A DNA stretch of 44,672 nt from Alphaproteobacteria bacterium (GTDB lineage: Bacteria; Pseudomonadota; Alphaproteobacteria; Rs-D84), in NCBI GenBank assembly GCA_017522445.1, contig JAFWZK010000042.1, forward strand, positions 1 through 44,672. The letters are read 5' to 3'. Of this stretch, positions 53-28,217 are shown in pieces. Position numbers and translations under genes: made by a program. Position 1 is the stretch's first letter. Every line of letters begins with the position of its first letter. A model generated the notes under the pieces. It had not been told where the DNA came from and did no database searches. It saw only the letters and a list, made by a program, of their open reading frames with translations.

Positions 53-622
53 ATGGCATCTTATATTGCAAATGATATGCGTGTGGGTTGGGTTATCTCG
101 CACAATGGTAAACGTTATTCTGTGACATCAATTACCAAAGTTAAACCAGGCAAGGGTGGGGCATTCGTTCAGGCCGACCTGCGTGATATCGATTCTGGAA
201 ACAAAGGTGGTGATCGCTGGCGTGCAGAAGATAAAGTTGAAAAGCTGATGGTCGAAGATTTTGATTGTCAATATCTGTACGCAGATGGTACAGACGCGTT
301 CTTTATGAATCTGTCTGACTATGAACAGTTTACAATGCCGGTTGATTCATTGGGTGAATCAATGAAATTCTTGGCACCGGAAATGGTGGTCAAAGCGAAC
401 TTTGTCGAAGGACAACCTGTATCCATTTCATTGCCCAAAACTGTAATCGCAACAGTCGAAGAAACAGAACCTGCATTAAAGGGACAAACTGTTTCATCCA
501 GTGGCGGTAAACCGGCCATCTTGGACAACGGTGTGCGTGTTCAAGTGCCACTGTTCATTGAACAAGGTGAAAAGATAGTTGTAAATACTGAAACGTTAGA
601 ATACGTTGAACGGGCAAAATAA
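53..622 (+). CDS. efp: Translation elongation factor P
   Basis: 189 aa; VKPGKGGAF loop, KPAILDNG..VQVPLFIEQGEKI..YVER C-terminus; AAGGGG RBS upstream. Confidence 0.97.
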   Translation: MASYIANDMRVGWVISHNGKRYSVTSITKVKPGKGGAFVQADLRDIDSGNKGGDRWRAEDKVEKLMVEDFDCQYLYADGTDAFFMNLSDYEQFTMPVDSLGESMKFLAPEMVVKANFVEGQPVSISLPKTVIATVEETEPALKGQTVSSSGGKPAILDNGVRVQVPLFIEQGEKIVVNTETLEYVERAK

Positions 623-1024
623 AAAAATTAAATATAATAATTCATCTGTGGACGGTTCCGACAACTCATGTAGCGTTTGTACACTACGTTGTCGGAACCG
701 TTTCACATCTAAATCATTCTATTTAATTTTTACGCATCTGACGTGCTGTGTGCGGGTGTGGGCATCTTATGTAGCGTTTGTACACTGCGATGCCCGATTT
801 GGTTTTATCTAAATCATTCTAATTTATTTTACGCATCTGATGTGCTGTGTGTGGGCGACAACTCATGTAGCGTTTTGTACACTACGTTGTCGCCCCCATC
901 CCATATCTAAATCATTCTAATTTATTTTACGCATCTGATGGGCTGTGTGTGGGCAACTCATGTAGCGTTTTGTACACTACGTTGTCGCCCCCATCCCATA
1001 TCTATATCATTATAGTTTATTTTC
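623..1024. repeat. Array 1 of a structured palindromic repeat family (4 units, period 95-101 nt)
   Basis: Core ATGTAGCGTTT(T)GTACACT(A/G)C at 668-687, 769-788, 865-885 and 960-980. Linker ATCTAAATCATTCTA..TTTACGCATCTGA lies between units. Arms flanking each core are inverted repeats: 652-665/688-701, 760-766/789-795, 853-862/886-895. Confidence 0.95.
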
Positions 1025-15990: not shown

Positions 15991-16850
15991 TTATCAGTAT
16001 CCTTGGGGGTTGCAAGTGGGTGATGCGATACCGTTTCAAGTAATTTGTCCGGCATCACGTGAGTGTAAATTTGGGTCGTAGAAATATCTTCGTGTCCCAG
16101 CATGGTTTGTATCGCACGCAGGTTCGCACCGCCCGCCAACAGATGCGATGCAAACGAATGACGCAGAACATGGGGGCTGACCCGGTCGGGGGATATGCCA
16201 GATAAAATGGCACACTTTTTTAATATCTTGAAAAATCCATCGCGGGTTATGTGACCCATTTTGCTGTTTGATGGAAATACATATTTCGATGTGTCATTGT
16301 CCCGTATGGATAACCATTTGTTTAATGCACTGATTGCTGTGTTGTGCATGGGAACCATACGTTCTTTGGAACCTTTGCCGTGTATCAGTAATTTGTTGCC
16401 CAAAACGCCGGTCATTGGTAATTCGCATAATTCTGATACGCGCAGCCCAGATGCATACAGTAATTCTATCATTGCGCGCAGACGCGTCGAATTGCGGGTG
16501 TCGCCAGCACTGGATATCAATAGTTCTATTTCTTGTACCGATAAGAACTTTGGCAGCGGGCGATTGCGTTTCGGTAATTCCAAATTCGTTGTGGGATTTG
16601 ATGATATCATCTTTTCCAACATTAAAAATTTATAAAAGCCACGCAGGGCAGATGCCTTGCGGGAAATAGATGATGGTTTGTCTGGCAGGCCAGATAAATA
16701 GGTCTGAAGTGCGTGTGTGTCCGCATTCAGTAAACCACCCGGTATGGATGCGTCCGCCAATCGCAAGTCGGATTCATAACTGGCCAGGGTTTTTTCACTG
16801 CGACCGTGTTCGGCAGATAGGGCCTCGAGAAAAATTTCTATGTAGTTCAT
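15987..16850 (-). CDS. xerD: Site-specific tyrosine recombinase, XerD type
   Basis: LYASGLRVSEL, GKGSKER, SPHVLRHSFASHLL, LGHEDISTTQIYTHV; start at MNYIE (16850). Confidence 0.88.
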   Translation of the reverse strand: MNYIEIFLEALSAEHGRSEKTLASYESDLRLADASIPGGLLNADTHALQTYLSGLPDKPSSISRKASALRGFYKFLMLEKMISSNPTTNLELPKRNRPLPKFLSVQEIELLISSAGDTRNSTRLRAMIELLYASGLRVSELCELPMTGVLGNKLLIHGKGSKERMVPMHNTAISALNKWLSIRDNDTSKYVFPSNSKMGHITRDGFFKILKKCAILSGISPDRVSPHVLRHSFASHLLAGGANLRAIQTMLGHEDISTTQIYTHVMPDKLLETVSHHPLATPKDTDK

Positions 16851-24804: not shown

Positions 24805-25485
24805 ATGTTTTTAACAAAAGATAATCAAATTAAATGGAATAAAATTATATCGGGGGCGGGTATTGTTGCCGTTCTGATGTTTTTCGGTATCGTATGGTTT
24901 GATAAACCACTGTTTGTGTGGTTGCGTGATTTTGATTGTCGGATGTGGTGGTTTTTTGATCAGATTTTTTCAGCAAAAAATTGGATTTTTGTGGCAGCAG
25001 TTGCCGCGGTGTTCTTTTGTGTGAAAAAATGCGTAAAAACAGATTGCAGTTTCTTGAAATGTGCAAACAAGGTTAAGATAAAGGTTTTTTTGCGGGATTT
25101 TTTCGTAAAAACAAAGACAAGTAATGCGTTTTTAATACTTTACAGCGTATTAGGGGCCAGCTTGGTGGTTGCTGTGTTAAAGGTTCTGATTGGGCGGGCC
25201 AGACCAATATTTTACGAGGCCTTGGGAATGACGGGTTTTTTCCCGCCGTCAACAGAATGGGCATTTAATTCTATGCCGTCTGGTCATACGGCGGTCAGTT
25301 TTGCAGGACTGGTTATGATTGGGATGTTGGCACCACGATTTAAGCCGCTGACGTGGATGCTGGCGATTTTAATTGGTTTTTCGCGGGTGGCATATGGGGC
25401 ACATTGGCCAACAGATGTTATTTTTGGGGCGTTTATCGGTATGGTTGTGGCCGATATTGTCAAAGGTATGTTAAGAAGGTCTTGA
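24805..25485 (+). CDS. PAP2-family membrane phosphatase (LpxE/PgpB-like)
   Basis: KVLIGRARP, PSGH and SRVAYGAHWPTD motifs. Confidence 0.9.
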   Translation: MFLTKDNQIKWNKIISGAGIVAVLMFFGIVWFDKPLFVWLRDFDCRMWWFFDQIFSAKNWIFVAAVAAVFFCVKKCVKTDCSFLKCANKVKIKVFLRDFFVKTKTSNAFLILYSVLGASLVVAVLKVLIGRARPIFYEALGMTGFFPPSTEWAFNSMPSGHTAVSFAGLVMIGMLAPRFKPLTWMLAILIGFSRVAYGAHWPTDVIFGAFIGMVVADIVKGMLRRS

Positions 25486-25488
25486 ATT

Positions 25489-25512
25489 ATCCCCAGCTTG
25501 GGGATTTTTTTT
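25489..25512 (+). terminator. Intrinsic terminator
   Basis: ATCCCCA-GCT-TGGGGAT followed by a T run. Confidence 0.8.
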
Positions 25513-25573
25513 GTTAAATATTGTTCTGGGACGTTTGTGTTTTTGTGAATTTTATGATAAAATACATGCTGAT

Positions 25574-27859
25574 ATGGCAGGAAAATCAAATTTTTTACCA
25601 AAAAGTATAGCAGAATCTTTGCGATGGCTGATGGGCCGTGTGTTTGGTGCCGCTGTTTGTGGGGTGGGACTGTGGGCCGTGTTTACATTGTTGTTTTTTG
25701 ATTCGAAATTGGCGGGTTTTGGCGTGGCCAGTACCTTTGGAGAACATTCGGTGATGGGGTATTTGGTTGCTATGTTGAAGTATGCAATTGGATGGGTTCC
25801 AGGATTTTTTGTTTTATTGTGTATTGTGCGGTGGGGTTTTTTGAAACTGATTGGATTTAATGCCGATGTGGCACCAGAATATAATTTGTTGCGCGGATTT
25901 ATCGCAGTGTGTCTGGGAACCGTTGGGTTTGGCGTTGTTTCAACCAGTTCTGCCTTTGGTGGTATGTTTGGTGCAATTGCAGTGGCTGATTTGGAAAACG
26001 TGTTTGGCGATTTGGTATTGGTTTTTGGAATTGCATGTATGTTGGGCTTTTTTGTGATGGCGGGTATGCTGTTGCATATTAAATGGTCGCATGTGCGTGG
26101 GGCAATGCGTATATTTGTGCGTTGTTTGCGGTGGGTAGGGTCCGCATTTCATTTGGTGGGCGCACCAACCGAGGTGTGTGACGCTGGAAACAAAGTGGCC
26201 AGTGATGATGATAAGGCCGAGCAAGCCAAAATATCGACAGAATCTGAGTCCGGGGTACAAAAAAAACGGGGCGGATTGTTGGGACGACGTAAAAAACAGG
26301 CGGCGACACCTGTGGCCGCGGTGGTGGCCAATACCACAATGCCAAATACAGCACAGGCATATTCTGTCTATCGATTGCCCGATACCAGTCTGTTGGAATA
26401 TTCCAAGGCGGCAAAGTATGCCGTCACGCCCGAATTGATGCAAAATGCACGTTCAATAGAAACCCATTTTGCAGAATATGGGGTTTTTGGCAAGGTCGTG
26501 GGTATTAAACCAGGCCCAGTTGTTACGTTGTACGAGTTCGAGCCAGAGCCAGGACAACGTATCGCAGATATCAGTAAAACAGGCAAAGATATGACACGTG
26601 CAATGGCGGTGGAAAACTTCCGTATCGCACTGATGCCAAAGTCAAATTATCTGGGTGTGGAAATGGCAAATATCAAGCGTCAGGTCGTGCGATATCGCGG
26701 CCTGATGGAAGACGAGATGTTTGTCCAGTCTAAATATAAAATCCCACTGGCTTTGGGGGTAAATATTGGTGGACATCCTATGTATTTTGACCTGGCGAAA
26801 ATGCCACATATGATGATTGCAGGGCGTACAGGGTCCGGTAAGTCTGTGTTCGTGCAATCTATTATCACATCAATCGTTTATCATTTTACACCAGATAAAT
26901 GTAAACTGATGATTATTGACCCAAAAGGGGTGGACTTTGGGTTCTGGGACAATATCCCGCACCTGATTACACCAATCGTTAAACTGGAACCCCAGCCGGC
27001 AATTAATGCACTGAAATGGGCCGTGCGGGAAATGGAAGAACGTTATAAACGACTGGGGCAATTGAACGCACGTAATATCGAAAGTTATAATGAAATTATG
27101 GCACAAAAACGTGACAGCGGGGAAAGATTAACCAAACAGGTCGCTGTGGGAACAGACCCAGAAACGGGTGAACTGATGTTCGAAACCCAGCAAGTTGATA
27201 TGTCTGATATGCCATATCTGGTAATCATTATTGACGAGGTGGCCGACCTGATGGCGGTCGCAAAAAAAGAAGTGGAACTGTGTGTGCAACGTATCGCACA
27301 AAAGGCACGTGCCGCAGGTATTCACTTAATCATGGCAACCCAGCGACCAGACGCAACAATTATCACAGGTGTTATCAAGGCAAACTTTCCAACACGCGTA
27401 TCGTTCCAGGCCGCCAGCCGTTTCGACAGTATGACATCCCTGGGGGCAGGTGGGGCAGAACAACTGTTGGCAATGGGCGATATGTTGTTCAGCGAAGGTG
27501 GGCATGCCGCTGTGCGTATACATGGGGCCTTTATCAGTGATGATGAATTAACAAAAATTGGGGACTTTCTGCGTTCACAAGGCGAACCAGAATATACCGA
27601 AGGGGTTACCGCAGGTGAAGACGATGGTGGTTCTGTAATCCCAGGTTTGCCCGGTGCAATTGGTGGCGGTGGTGCCAAAGATGACCTGTACGAGCAGGCC
27701 AAGGAAATCGTCATTCGTGATAAAAAACCAACAATTTCATATCTGCAACGCCGTCTGGGGGTTGGTTATAACAGGGCCGCTGGATTTATCGAACGCATGG
27801 AACAAGATGGAATCCTGTCGGGACCTGATGCAAAAAATAAACGCCAAATACTGGTTTAA
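25574..27859 (+). CDS. ftsK: DNA translocase FtsK
   Basis: N-terminal TM region, GPVVTLYE, AGRTGSGKS, IIIDEVADLM, ARAAGIHLIMATQRP, gamma domain SYLQRRLGVGYNRA. Confidence 0.98.
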   Translation: MAGKSNFLPKSIAESLRWLMGRVFGAAVCGVGLWAVFTLLFFDSKLAGFGVASTFGEHSVMGYLVAMLKYAIGWVPGFFVLLCIVRWGFLKLIGFNADVAPEYNLLRGFIAVCLGTVGFGVVSTSSAFGGMFGAIAVADLENVFGDLVLVFGIACMLGFFVMAGMLLHIKWSHVRGAMRIFVRCLRWVGSAFHLVGAPTEVCDAGNKVASDDDKAEQAKISTESESGVQKKRGGLLGRRKKQAATPVAAVVANTTMPNTAQAYSVYRLPDTSLLEYSKAAKYAVTPELMQNARSIETHFAEYGVFGKVVGIKPGPVVTLYEFEPEPGQRIADISKTGKDMTRAMAVENFRIALMPKSNYLGVEMANIKRQVVRYRGLMEDEMFVQSKYKIPLALGVNIGGHPMYFDLAKMPHMMIAGRTGSGKSVFVQSIITSIVYHFTPDKCKLMIIDPKGVDFGFWDNIPHLITPIVKLEPQPAINALKWAVREMEERYKRLGQLNARNIESYNEIMAQKRDSGERLTKQVAVGTDPETGELMFETQQVDMSDMPYLVIIIDEVADLMAVAKKEVELCVQRIAQKARAAGIHLIMATQRPDATIITGVIKANFPTRVSFQAASRFDSMTSLGAGGAEQLLAMGDMLFSEGGHAAVRIHGAFISDDELTKIGDFLRSQGEPEYTEGVTAGEDDGGSVIPGLPGAIGGGGAKDDLYEQAKEIVIRDKKPTISYLQRRLGVGYNRAAGFIERMEQDGILSGPDAKNKRQILV

Positions 27860-28168
27860 ATTAAATCTAATGGCATATCTGCAAGTGAACCCGCCAGTTT
27901 ATGTAGCGTCTGTACACCGCACTGGCGGGTTCATCTTGCATCTGTGCCATTATCTTTAATTTAACGCATCTGATGGGCAGGGGGGTATGTAGCGTTATGT
28001 ACACTACGATGTCGCCCCCATCCCGTATCTATACCATTATCTTTAATTTAATGCATCTGACGGGCATGGGGGCTTATGTAGCGTTATGTACACTGCACTG
28101 GCGGGTTCATCTTGCATCTATACCATTATCTTTAATTTAACGCATCCGATGGGTGGGGGTGTTTTTTT
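27856..28168. repeat. Array 2 of the same structured palindromic repeat family (3 units plus a partial fourth, period 86-89 nt)
   Basis: Cores at 27901-27920, 27987-28007 and 28076-28096; linker CCATTATCTTTAATTTAA(C/T)GCATC(T/C)GA occurs three times; 109-nt hairpin at 27856-27964. Confidence 0.95.
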
Positions 28169-28217
28169 ACTTTTATATGCTCTGATTTTGTGATAAAATT
28201 ATCTTGATAGAGAGAAT

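Follow-up and report, generated by a model that had tools for sequence, protein, structure and literature searches.

Two tandem arrays in the window

The window, that is, the whole stretch of 44,672 nucleotides analysed, contains two tandem arrays of a hairpin-forming repeat, with four and three units, whose first units are those at 623-731 and 27856-27964. Both arrays lie on the plus strand behind co-oriented genes, an elongation factor P-like open reading frame (ORF) for array 1 and an FtsK-like ORF for array 2. Their features are the following:

53-622, plus strand: host gene of array 1, ORF resembling elongation factor P with the C-terminus ...ETLEYVERAK and the stop codon TAA at 620-622; named from the C-terminal peptide and matches of 93-97%
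623-731, plus strand: array 1 unit 1, full 109-nt palindrome; CM 123.9 bits, E 7e-27
Left side of this unit, plus strand: outer arm 623-644, ATCT 644-647, variable arm 647-665, bulge TC(A) 666-668
Right side of this unit, plus strand: core 668-687, variable arm 688-707, ATCT 707-710, outer arm 710-731
732-833, plus strand: array 1 unit 2, lacking the left outer arm; linker ACGCATCTGACGTGCTGTGTGCGGGTGT, stem GGGCATC/GATGCCC, core 770-785, right outer arm; CM match 725-833, 62 bits
834-931, plus strand: array 1 unit 3; linker, stem GGGCGACAAC/GTTGTCGCCC, core 866-882, right outer arm; CM match 845-931, 66 bits
932-1026, plus strand: array 1 unit 4; core 961-977, CM match 943-1026
25475-27859, plus strand: host gene of array 2, FtsK-like ORF ending in ...DAKNKRQILV, stop codon TAA; named from the C-terminal peptide only
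27856-27964, plus strand: array 2 unit 1, full 109-nt palindrome; stem GAACCCGCCAGT/ACTGGCGGGTTC, core 27902-27917; CM 103 bits
27965-28053, plus strand: array 2 unit 2, lacking the left outer arm; shortened G-rich left arm, core 27988-28004, right arm GATGTCGCCCCCATCCCGT
28054-28142, plus strand: array 2 unit 3, chimeric; left arm of the GGGGGC type, right arm of the ACTGGCGGGTTC type, core 28077-28093
28141-28170, plus strand: array 2 end module; ACGCATCCGATGGGTGGGGGTG and then seven T in a row, the start of a left arm with no core

The left outer arm of array 1 begins at the base directly after the stop codon of the efp-like gene, and the right outer arm of its unit 4 extends over the stop codon (1010-1012) and final codons of a convergent ORF on the minus strand (1010-1954). 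The left outer arm of array 2 overlaps the stop codon of the FtsK-like ORF, and the type-2 outer arms of its unit 1 contain another ATCT/ATCT mismatch 8 nt farther from the core. A terminator consensus scan returned no site in array 1 and, in array 2, a site in the end module only (28143-28155); this module looks like a terminator. Related mini-hairpins, either G-rich with a T-run or with a GCAA loop, trail the arrays in many species.

Structure of the repeat unit

Direct reading of the two 109-mers bore out the geometry given in the original prediction (22 + TC + 19 + 2 + 20 + 20 + TC + 22 nt), together with the cores ATGTAGCGTTTGTACACTAC and ATGTAGCGTCTGTACACCGC, the inner stems ACGGTTCCGACAAC/GTTGTCGGAACCGT at 623-731 and TGAACCCGCCAGT/ACTGGCGGGTTCA at 27856-27964, and the stems GGGCATC/GATGCCC and GGGCGACAAC/GTTGTCGCCC of units 2 and 3. 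The TC dinucleotides described there as spacers are indeed present, but they are more than spacers, being the middle of a conserved ATCT found on both arms. Since the two ATCT motifs face each other, they form a conserved 2x2 pyrimidine mismatch, TC opposite TC, which is unpaired in 93-94 of 94 copies. From 5' to 3', the unit consists of an AT-rich outer arm, ATCT, an 18-nt variable arm, TCA, the core, TAC, the complementary arm, ATCT and the second outer arm. It measures 103-106 nt, or 109 nt with the flanks included in the earlier delimitation, and its conserved core is TGTAGCG-N2-3-TGTACAC. Tandem units are direct repeats with a period of 90-100 nt.

Whether taken as DNA or RNA, and on whichever strand, each 109-mer forms a single hairpin over its full length (z-scores -9.1 to -12.9; none of 200 shuffles folded as well). 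Covariation was assessed over a 47-pair structure in 95 non-identical copies drawn from this window and from 93 loci in other genomes; since copies of related genomes are not independent, the counts overstate the statistics. In this set 85.3% of the cells were paired, compared with 69.0% in shuffles (0 of 500 reached 85.3%), and sliding the partner arm lowered pairing to 35-44%. Compensatory changes on both sides were found in 33 of the 47 pairs, and all 12 pairs of the inner helix covaried; RNAalifold alone gave compensatory changes in 17 of 24 pairs. The spacing was similarly constrained. Thus, among 97 well-paired units, the left arm measured 18 nt from ATCT to the core bulge in 82, and the right arm 18 nt in 69 and 19 nt in 25. 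Covariation and spacing counts thus back the earlier claim that pairing is selected for or maintained while the stem sequence is free, the apical loop conserved and the geometry fixed. Complementarity and a fixed geometry also recurred in the additional genomic copies.

The outer arms occur in types paired like with like (52 units 1/1, 40 units 2/2 and 3 mixed), and they also keep specific A.C and T.C mismatches in nearly all copies. The idea that one arm templates the other is insufficient as a full account, because specific mismatches (TC/TC, A.C and T.C) are conserved in nearly all copies.

As a side observation, the core contains an ATG-TAG start-stop and the arms contain -10-like hexamers (TATAAT, TAGAAT and GATAAT); a promoter scan gave nothing above shuffles.

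Distribution, position and turnover of the repeat

The core pattern TGTAGCGT-N1-3-TGTACAC matched the window seven times, always on the plus strand (0.00 expected from 100 shuffles). The genome search suggested in the original prediction gave 19 matches with this pattern in the source genome (0.99 Mb), where about 23 repeat units occupy 10 places. In an order-level sample of 120 genomes, matches were found in 91, all of one family, and the 29 genomes from five other families had none. At the genus level, 88 of 106 genomes contained from 1 to 25 or more matches and 18 contained none, units per genome among Candidatus Enterousia MAGs reaching 25 or more. Phages, plasmids and viral contigs yielded no match.

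The repeat constitutes a previously undescribed hairpin-forming family, of about 105 bases per unit, in the MAGs of these tiny-genome gut bacteria. Its description as new in the original prediction held: the core sequence is absent from the literature searched, it has no Rfam family, and the Rfam scan proposed at the time returned 0 matches in the window at the gathering score. In E-value mode, positions 560-1060 gave only chance matches to miRNA precursors, the best being MIR6140 (19.6 bits against a threshold of 140, E 0.44). In a term search of PMC12306168, where MAGs of Enterousia (order Rs-D84) are given as <1 Mb, the strings "repeat", "palindrom" and "terminator" each have 0 occurrences.

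The strand bearing the core was G-rich in its flanks, as expected of the leading strand, in 93 of 93 arrays, and taking the opposite-strand genes within the flanks as a test, 77 of 78 loci fitted the leading strand. Only 66% of the genes lie on that strand. This strict polarity may reflect action on one replication template strand. In genome G044 all 19 units were on the G-rich strand, 18 of them inside 14-221 kb of contig C2, near the skew switch and dnaA, and contig C1 (489 kb, including a strongly skewed 200 kb) had none.

Approximately 90 of 92 arrays adjoin the stop codon of a co-oriented gene or overlap it, the 13 seeming exceptions being almost all artefacts. In 75 arrays the co-oriented upstream ORF ends at most 10 nt from the array start or overlaps it, with TAA as the stop codon in 70, and the palindrome often merges into the native ...AAA TAA of the host gene. 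The hosts include efp, ftsK, rpsM, rpsK and rpoA, in conserved synteny, and some 26 of them recur across species, which also fits vertical inheritance of a functional element.

The same positions carry terminators in genomes devoid of the repeat. Thus, five element-free congeners have small terminators on the 3' side of efp, and the orthologous sites of G004 showed a hairpin plus T-run in 12 of 16 cases, as judged by eye on the printed sequences. The terminators at orthologous sites of element-free genomes comprise an A-tract, a GC hairpin and a T-tract. For its part, the right outer arm of the repeat ends in TTTATTTT, and TTTT follows some stems. No RNA run was listed for positions 1-2400 of the window, only two sequencing runs of unspecified kind from one study, with shares of 0.22-0.24.

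Occupancy of orthologous sites varied among species, through gain or loss, and copies decay or leave footprints. G044 and G000 have only about six occupied sites in common, the remaining sites being ordinary terminators in the other genome, and a footprint-like remnant and a decayed copy were found behind rpoA. Stem identity of at least 90% was reached by 17% of 78 same-genome pairs from different loci and by 12% of 83 orthologous pairs, compared with 2% of 2540 other pairs. A two-unit tandem duplication was found in C3, and chimeric units are also present. Comparison by eye of filled and empty orthologous sites revealed no direct repeat (target-site duplication). Stop-codon adjacency, strict leading-strand polarity, the terminator position and the turnover among species all go beyond the original prediction.

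Partner search, known systems and competing explanations

A trans-acting protein had been predicted to recognise the repeat, and none was identified among the families and ORFs searched. A RAYT/IS200 partner was ruled out, Y1_Tnp (PF01797) having 0 matches in G000 (94.6% complete) and occurring in only 2 of 150 genus genomes; the control search matched 6 of 14 reference genomes. DDE_Tnp_1 and IS110 were each found in 0 of 5 genomes. None of the three families searched (Y1/HUH, DDE_Tnp_1 and IS110) accompanies the repeat in this lineage of 0.9-Mb genomes. Tyrosine recombinases, counted as a class, were rejected as well, being equally present in element-free G004 and in carrier genomes. The Mtd_N protein and reverse transcriptase of G000 suggested a reverse transcriptase/DGR link. 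Reverse transcriptase is present in 54 of 150 genus genomes and does not track copy number; the link was dropped because the high-copy genomes G044 (19 units), G054, G077, G148 and G051 are without the enzyme and G086 has it with zero copies.

Subtractive proteomics identified 63 of 911 G044 ORFs as common to G000 and missing in G004. Of these, 29 were compared with Pfam and 9 of the 29, including 7 without a Pfam match, with NCBIfam, the remaining 34 being mostly <130 aa or of low identity. The 29 scanned ORFs included no recombinase or nuclease family, and 7 had no family match at all; the types encountered were efflux, sugar-nucleotide, OMP, Fic/HTH and PHP/HisJ-like. As for other candidate identities, a scan for the 11-nt XerD-arm motif of dif/Xer sites, with 1 mismatch allowed, gave only noise, the resemblance of the core to 16S rRNA (common TTGTACAC) was judged to be chance, and a group II intron remnant was discarded, there being no Rfam match.

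REP/BIME elements of enterobacteria and REPINs of Pseudomonas, which go with RAYT (Y1 HUH) transposases, are intergenic palindromic repeats located at 3' ends or between operon genes, in mosaic clusters, and are probably recognised as hairpins. The present repeat is likewise an intergenic, transcribed-side palindrome in multi-module clusters of variable copy number, and, as in REP, GTAG stands on the 5' flank of its apical stem (within the core, GTAG...CTAC). However, it is ~105 nt long rather than 20-40 nt, has its units in direct tandem instead of inverted pairs, conserves the loop and varies the stem where REP conserves the stem, and reaches ~20 copies rather than hundreds, with no RAYT, strict leading-strand polarity and stop-codon adjacency. 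By such defining features it is not REP, attC or CRISPR, as had been stated earlier.

Other likenesses are also partial. ERIC (IRU) and the MITE-like Correia elements of Neisseria (100-160 bp) have a similar size and are long imperfect palindromes in transcribed intergenic DNA, with patchy occupancy of orthologous sites in related species and a transposase that is unknown or long went unidentified; Correia transcripts fold into hairpins that RNase III processes. Nevertheless, the present repeat has no sequence similarity to them (no match in Rfam, phages or plasmids), no target-site duplication was seen by eye, it lies in one orientation only, and it is built as a variable self-complementary inner stem round an invariant loop. 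As in MITEs, terminal inverted repeats are present, the 19-22-nt outer arms being complementary except for fixed mismatches, but no parent IS or transposase with matching ends was found (DDE_Tnp_1 and IS110 in 0 of 5 genomes; no match in phages, plasmids or viral contigs).

The attC sites of integrons, which form ORF-plus-attC cassette arrays next to an IntI integrase and attI, follow immediately on the stop codon of the preceding ORF, in a single, replication-tied orientation, and carry the boxes R''/L'' and L'/R' (RYYYAAC ... GTTRRRY) with a variable terminal structure. The repeat shares with them the position, the single orientation, the conserved structure with free sequence and the conserved unpaired positions that mark one strand. 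In contrast, its hosts are housekeeping genes and not cassettes, its units follow in series without ORFs, its terminal loop is invariant, ATCT stands on both arms with no GTTRRRY-type R/L boxes, and tyrosine recombinase counts are alike with and without it. With intrinsic (bidirectional) terminators it shares the position that these occupy in congeners, and several stem types resemble a terminator with the core inserted (AAAACCAAATCGGGCATC ... GATGCCCGATTTGGTTTT); however, it is set apart by an invariant loop of 16-20 nt, a stem of 45 bp and conserved mismatches, as well as by the identity among its many copies and by its arrays, and a simple terminator scan does not call it. In IS200/IS605 PATE elements a Y1 transposase acts in trans on separate subterminal hairpins with tetranucleotide cleavage sites, and a replication-linked orientation bias of IS200/IS605 was reportedly described by Ton-Hoang and colleagues in 2010. 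Hairpin-based recognition and replication-linked orientation bias would be common ground, but the present repeat has no Y1 transposase and consists of a single long palindrome, where IS200/IS605 elements have separate hairpins at their left and right ends.

Our best explanation, to which we give about even credence, is a duplicative folded-DNA repeat akin to REP, ERIC and attC that also acts as a 3' hairpin and is recognised by a putative protein. Such lineage-specific intergenic repeats would work like REP/BIME, ERIC or Correia, with a recognition logic like that of attC. The function-bearing parts would be the apical core, the two ATCT/ATCT mismatches held 18 + 3 nt from it and the AT-rich outer arms, and the 18-bp inner stem would need only to pair. 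Units would be copied among gene 3' ends, build tandem arrays, recombine into chimeras, decay and be deleted, being tolerated solely directly 3' of the stop codons of leading-strand genes. There the hairpin, often with its own small GC hairpin and T-run, would replace the resident intrinsic terminator. The active form may be a folded single strand or cruciform, the protein may bind the loop and measure to the TC/TC loops, and in the transcript the hairpin may serve as a terminator or 3' stabiliser.

The strongest rival, although rather unlikely, is a cis element acting purely at the RNA level: a set of highly expressed leading-strand genes would have a conserved 3'-UTR module, be it a terminator, a block to 3' exonucleases or a processing site, whose apical loop would be bound by an RNA-binding protein or by RNase III, cutting or measuring at the UC/UC internal loops, and whose similarity between loci would be kept by selection and occasional gene conversion. 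The sense orientation directly 3' of stop codons, the location where congeners carry terminators, the presence of rpsM, rpsK, rpoA and efp among the hosts and the repeated occupation of the same ~26 genes across species are all consistent with it. Furthermore, a small GC hairpin and T-run trail many of the units, so that the palindrome would lie within the transcript, and the stem from the loop to TC/TC spans ~22 bp, as RNase III substrates typically do. However, the inner stems have no excess of G.T (G.U) over A.C on the sense strand or on the other (57 vs 65), which is evidence against a structured RNA of the classical kind and agrees with a palindrome at the DNA level. Similarly, the antisense strand is the better fold in 91 of 105 first units (both strands fold alike in secondary units, 20 vs 21), and the conserved outer-arm mismatches read A.C on the sense strand (131 vs 26 G.T). 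The repeat is also dispensable, 18 of 106 genus genomes having none, its single copies decay, and stems are shared across loci within a genome as strongly as at orthologous loci. Finally, lagging-strand genes (34%) never carry it, which an RNA function does not predict.

It is improbable that there is no dedicated reader at all, the palindromes being spread and homogenised by host recombination, slippage and template switching alone, with the core and arms looking conserved as young copies or as homology anchors for gene conversion. The absence of any transposase or differential recombinase from the searches made, the tandem duplication and chimeras with their breakpoint in the core, and the clustering of G044 copies within 207 kb of one replichore would agree with this. 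Nevertheless, the 16-nt core and the ATCT mismatches are (nearly) invariant in the 95 copies, from many species with differing synonymous sites, while the stems between them get replaced; arm-to-arm correction would remove the conserved TC/TC, A.C and T.C mismatches, and the fixed 18-nt spacing and strict polarity call for a directional reader or process. A host chromosomal site in a replication-linked process (a polar fork, cohesion or loading signal), intergenic by chance, would account for the absolute co-orientation with the leading strand and the regional clustering, in G044, towards the origin side of a single replichore, but is very improbable given that the repeat always adjoins the stop codon of a co-oriented gene, is patchily distributed (missing from 18 of 106 congeners and present in 1 to 25 or more copies elsewhere, with none in G044 contig C1, which is 489 kb long and includes 200 kb of strong skew) and forms tandem arrays with degenerate units.

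Within the preferred reading of a duplicative folded-DNA repeat, we tentatively consider a more specific possibility, namely, a new kind of folded-DNA element specific to one replication strand, in which an unknown protein, or a host enzyme in a new use, reads the invariant loop and the two TC/TC mismatches at a ruler-like distance of 21 nt and places copies of the hairpin at leading-strand gene 3' ends, whose terminators are thereby overwritten. If true, this would amount either to a novel mechanism of mobilisation or to a terminator cassette that is portable. Most bacterial interspersed repeats are still without a mechanism, and the constraints here are sharp: an invariant loop, free paired stems, symmetric mismatches at a fixed distance, absolute polarity, single-nucleotide stop adjacency and terminator replacement. 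If the hairpin truly replaces terminators, it would be a natural portable 3'-end module in reduced genomes. A spread driven by single-strand hairpins at replication forks is testable in these genomes. They have only ~900 genes and hundreds of sequenced relatives whose copy numbers span 0 to 25 or more, which makes it tractable to look for the partner by phyletic comparison.

Architecture and pairing of the hairpin units

The hairpins are members of a new, strongly structured and polar repeat family, which is located at the positions of terminators and undergoes turnover from species to species. The genome of the window (0.99 Mb in 62 contigs, 94.6% complete; the window is contig C41) contains two direct tandem arrays in this contig, whose first units are the stretches 623-731 and 27856-27964. 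Direct reading of both matched exactly the original prediction of 109-nt hairpins with an identical layout. Seven core matches were observed in the window, against none expected by chance. Whichever strand of the two 109-mers was folded, and whether as DNA or as RNA, a single long hairpin resulted (z-scores, -9 to -13).

Arrays in the window
Cores at 669, 770, 866 and 961: array 1, four units, 3' of an EF-P-like gene
Cores at 27902, 27988 and 28077: array 2, three units, 3' of an FtsK-like gene

A core search in the genome and its relatives rendered further copies sharing the architecture. The exact 17-nt core was found in at least 117 stretches of a species-representative genome collection, and among the matches listed nearly all came from animal-gut MAGs labelled Alphaproteobacteria or Candidatus Enterousia. 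Seven loci (L024, L032, L049, L089, L096, L100 and L111) were discarded as chance matches, since none had arms and most lay inside genes of unrelated genomes. About 140 copies showed one common architecture.

Parts of a unit
Outer arm: AT-rich, of two types; left and right types matched in 52 + 40 units and mixed in 3
ATCT: conserved on both arms, between the outer and the inner arm
Variable arm: 18 nt of free sequence left of the bulge, with a complementary arm on the right
Bulge: TCA or TTA, between the left variable arm and the core
Core: TGTA(G/A)C...TGTACAC, with a middle of 2-5 variable bases
TAC or TGC: between the core and the complementary right arm

In 95 copies, 85.3% of 4446 cells were paired, compared with 69.0% after shuffling, and none of 500 shuffles equalled the observed value, although the shuffle comparison overstates significance because the copies, drawn from related genomes, lack independence. 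The slid-partner control, which is free of this kinship problem, rendered 35 to 44% pairing. In the same copies, changes on both sides were observed in 33 of 47 pairs, including all 12 of the inner helix, with a covariation score of 0.431 versus 0.145. Of 97 units, 82 had a left arm of 18 nt; the right arm was 18 nt long in 69 units and 19 nt long in 25. Thus, the predicted combination of fixed geometry, conserved loop and replaced yet complementary stems held. Since the two ATCT motifs stand opposite each other, their TC dinucleotides form a 2x2 mismatch, unpaired in 93 to 94 of 94 copies. In type-2 arms a second mismatch of this kind lies 8 nt farther from the core; T.C and A.C mismatches are fixed in type-1 arms.

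A second core variant, TGTAACTTCTGTACAC, was present in 14 of 134 units (L002, L009, L020, L030, L043, L052, L095, L098 and G044, a genome of the genus); this and rarer variants were found with both outer-arm types. In the core variants ATGTA... and ...TGTACAC are invariant, and the middle differs in length by 2-5 nt.

A covariance model and HMM trained on 95 non-identical copies detected some 23 units, spread over 10 places, in the genome of the window. The element had no match in Rfam, nor in phage records, plasmid records or viral contigs. Its core sequence was absent from the literature searched, and the passages reached by a term search of a publication on these reduced genomes (PMC12306168) mention no repeats. 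The element works similarly to REP/BIME, ERIC, Correia and attC elements but fails the defining tests of each.

Placement behind genes and strand polarity

The upstream neighbor was a long co-oriented ORF in 87 of the 102 arrays lying away from locus ends, and in 75 of these 87 (including two chance loci, L089 and L100) it overlapped the array or ended no more than 10 nt from its start. The stop codon was TAA in 70 of the 75 adjoining ORFs. Thirteen apparent exceptions to stop adjacency corresponded to short or overlooked ORFs or to variant-core first units, leaving one or two real ones. The stop codon frequently falls within the left outer arm, which in one host gene extends over the last four codons (...YLNKL*). 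About 26 host genes, counted by eye from C-terminal peptides, recurred across species. Those in the genome of the window, named from C-terminal sequences only, include rpsM, rpsK, rpoA, efp and ftsK, together with genes for a secretin-like protein, a large outer-membrane protein and a small SNase-like nuclease. The downstream gene lay on either strand (47 versus 49) at a variable distance.

At 1010-1030 of the window, the last right arm of array 1 overlaps the stop and last codons of the convergent gene downstream of efp. In G004, an element-free genome of the genus, the gene convergent to efp ends in ...NKL* (AAT AAA TTA TAA), resembling the outer-arm consensus; native gene ends and arm sequence are similar to each other.

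The strand carrying TGTAGCG...TGTACAC was the G-rich strand of the 8-kb flanks in all 93 arrays (mean skew, +0.19). Because coding strands are themselves G-rich here (in the window, +0.23 in + strand genes versus +0.03 in opposite-strand genes, read on the + strand), skew was then measured inside opposite-strand genes only. A lagging element strand would give about -0.23 in such genes, as expected from these two values; the mean observed in the array flanks was +0.09, with 77 of 78 loci above -0.10. The G-rich strand accounts for only 66% of genes, yet among the arrays examined no lagging-strand gene carried the element and no array faced a gene start, so both gene and replication direction constrain the element.

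In G044 (3 contigs), all 19 units were on the G-rich strand. Eighteen lay within C2:14-221 kb, which is adjoined by a skew switch near 245 kb and by dnaA at 280 kb, and contig C1 (489 kb) had no units. This genome has a strong GC skew (about 0.2) across C2:0-245 kb and across C1:0-200 kb, falling to near zero in the remaining ~450 kb, with gene-strand bias shifting at the same places; its replichores look very unequal in skew strength.

Distribution, turnover and adjoining modules

Matches were confined to one family of the order (91 of 120 genomes, with 0 of 29 in five other families). Within the genus, 88 of 106 genomes had from 1 to 25 or more matches, with at most 25 candidates scored per genome, and 18 had none. 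Five element-free congeners carry a small terminator (A-tract, hairpin, T-tract) directly 3' of efp. In G004, 12 of 16 sites orthologous to occupied G044 sites, read by eye, showed such a terminator, two of the 16 orthologies being weak (31% and 35% identity); the remainder include one site whose hairpin lacks a T-run, and the spacer between rpsM and rpsK has no terminator. About six occupied sites were common to G044 and the genome of the window, and at the other sites, where just one of the two carried the element, its counterpart had an unrelated terminator of ordinary type. The copy 3' of rpoA in the genome of the window has a mutated core. On its contig C57, an ORF ending in ...AALS is followed only by TAA AAAATCTGATAATTTATTTT, where G044 has a full unit and the orthologue ends in ...FQMQDQITSVLS; here the outer ends of left and right arms are joined, as in a deletion footprint.

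Of 78 same-genome pairs from different loci, 17% had inner stems with 90% identity or more, compared with 12% of 83 pairs of orthologous loci in different genomes and 2% of 2540 unrelated pairs. Arrays also contained one two-unit tandem duplication (C3) and chimeric units with left and right arms from different stem types. Taken together, these data indicate that turnover of the family proceeds through duplication, exchange, decay and deletion.

The intergenic regions combine several repeat modules in mosaic fashion. After many units comes a small GC hairpin (GCAA or GCTA loop) or a G-rich stretch, in either case with a T-run, and this segment also acts as the degenerate left arm of the next array unit. 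In many species (L021, L033, L043, L045, L051, L058, L060, L093, L108 and G044 sites), a mini-hairpin, CCCC(N)GCAAGGGG or CCACCGCAAGGGGTGG with a GCAA/GCTA loop and a T-run, directly follows the right outer arm, and its G-rich half doubles as the next unit's left arm; the window's lineage has ACGCATCTGAYGTGCTGTGTGYGGG at this position. A lenient scan found a terminator-like hairpin within 130 nt after 35 of 127 arrays, some arrays being counted twice through matches on both strands. A second repeated module, ...ACAATGGATACCGGCCGCCGCCGGTATGACGGTGTGGGTG..., with a perfect 8-bp GC hairpin (ATACCGGC/GCCGGTAT), follows three arrays.

Occurrences of the second module
C6 of the genome of the window, after ~1290, - strand
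C54 of the same genome, before ~6000, - strand
C55 of the same genome, before ~14800, - strand
Also locus L081

Level of action and candidate partner proteins

The inner stems contained 57 G.T and 65 A.C oppositions, and thus neither strand was favored. Among 105 first units, 91 folded better as the antisense strand, owing to A.C oppositions on the sense strand at the fixed outer-arm mismatches and at one core-stem position; on the other hand, the TAC-to-TGC variant, seen in 16 of 100 units, forms a wobble pair solely on the sense strand. A purely RNA-level 3'-UTR element, the main rival, is favored by the position of the repeats and the recurrence of host genes, but disfavored by the lack of wobble bias, the dispensability of the repeat, the stems common to different loci within one genome and the exclusion of lagging-strand genes. 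From the strand comparisons, we infer a DNA-level palindrome that is also transcribed. A protein that recognizes the loop together with the TC/TC mismatches, set at a fixed distance, may read its folded form; copying would act on one replication template strand, and the hairpin would take over the function of the terminator.

The original prediction proposed recognition by a trans-acting protein; no partner emerged among the candidates searched. Y1_Tnp was absent from the genome of the window and present in 2 of 150 genomes of the genus, and DDE_Tnp_1 and IS110 were found in 0 of 5 genomes. Tyrosine recombinases were rejected, with 3 to 5 per genome, element-free G004 included, as was reverse transcriptase, present in 54 of 150 genomes and unrelated to copy number. 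Sixty-three ORFs were common to G044 and the genome of the window and missing in G004; the 29 scanned included no nucleic-acid enzyme, and 7 had no family match.

A XerC/XerD-like tyrosine recombinase gene lies between the two arrays of the window (16053-16550, - strand; 151 bits to Phage_integrase), with orthologues in all five genomes checked, the element-free one included. The reverse transcriptase (~350 aa) is encoded at C24:4474-5025 in the genome of the window and in 53 others of the genus, and both this genome and G044 encode an Mtd_N (major tropism determinant N-terminal) protein, which suggests diversity-generating retroelements in these 0.9-Mb genomes. A small region at C1:331-335 kb of G044 and on C25 of the genome of the window is 95 to 100% identical, compared with 50 to 95% for other genes of the two species. 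It encodes a Fic-domain protein, two HTH proteins and a tyrosine recombinase (C1:333235-333735 and C25:1750-2250, respectively), and looks like a recently transferred mobile island.
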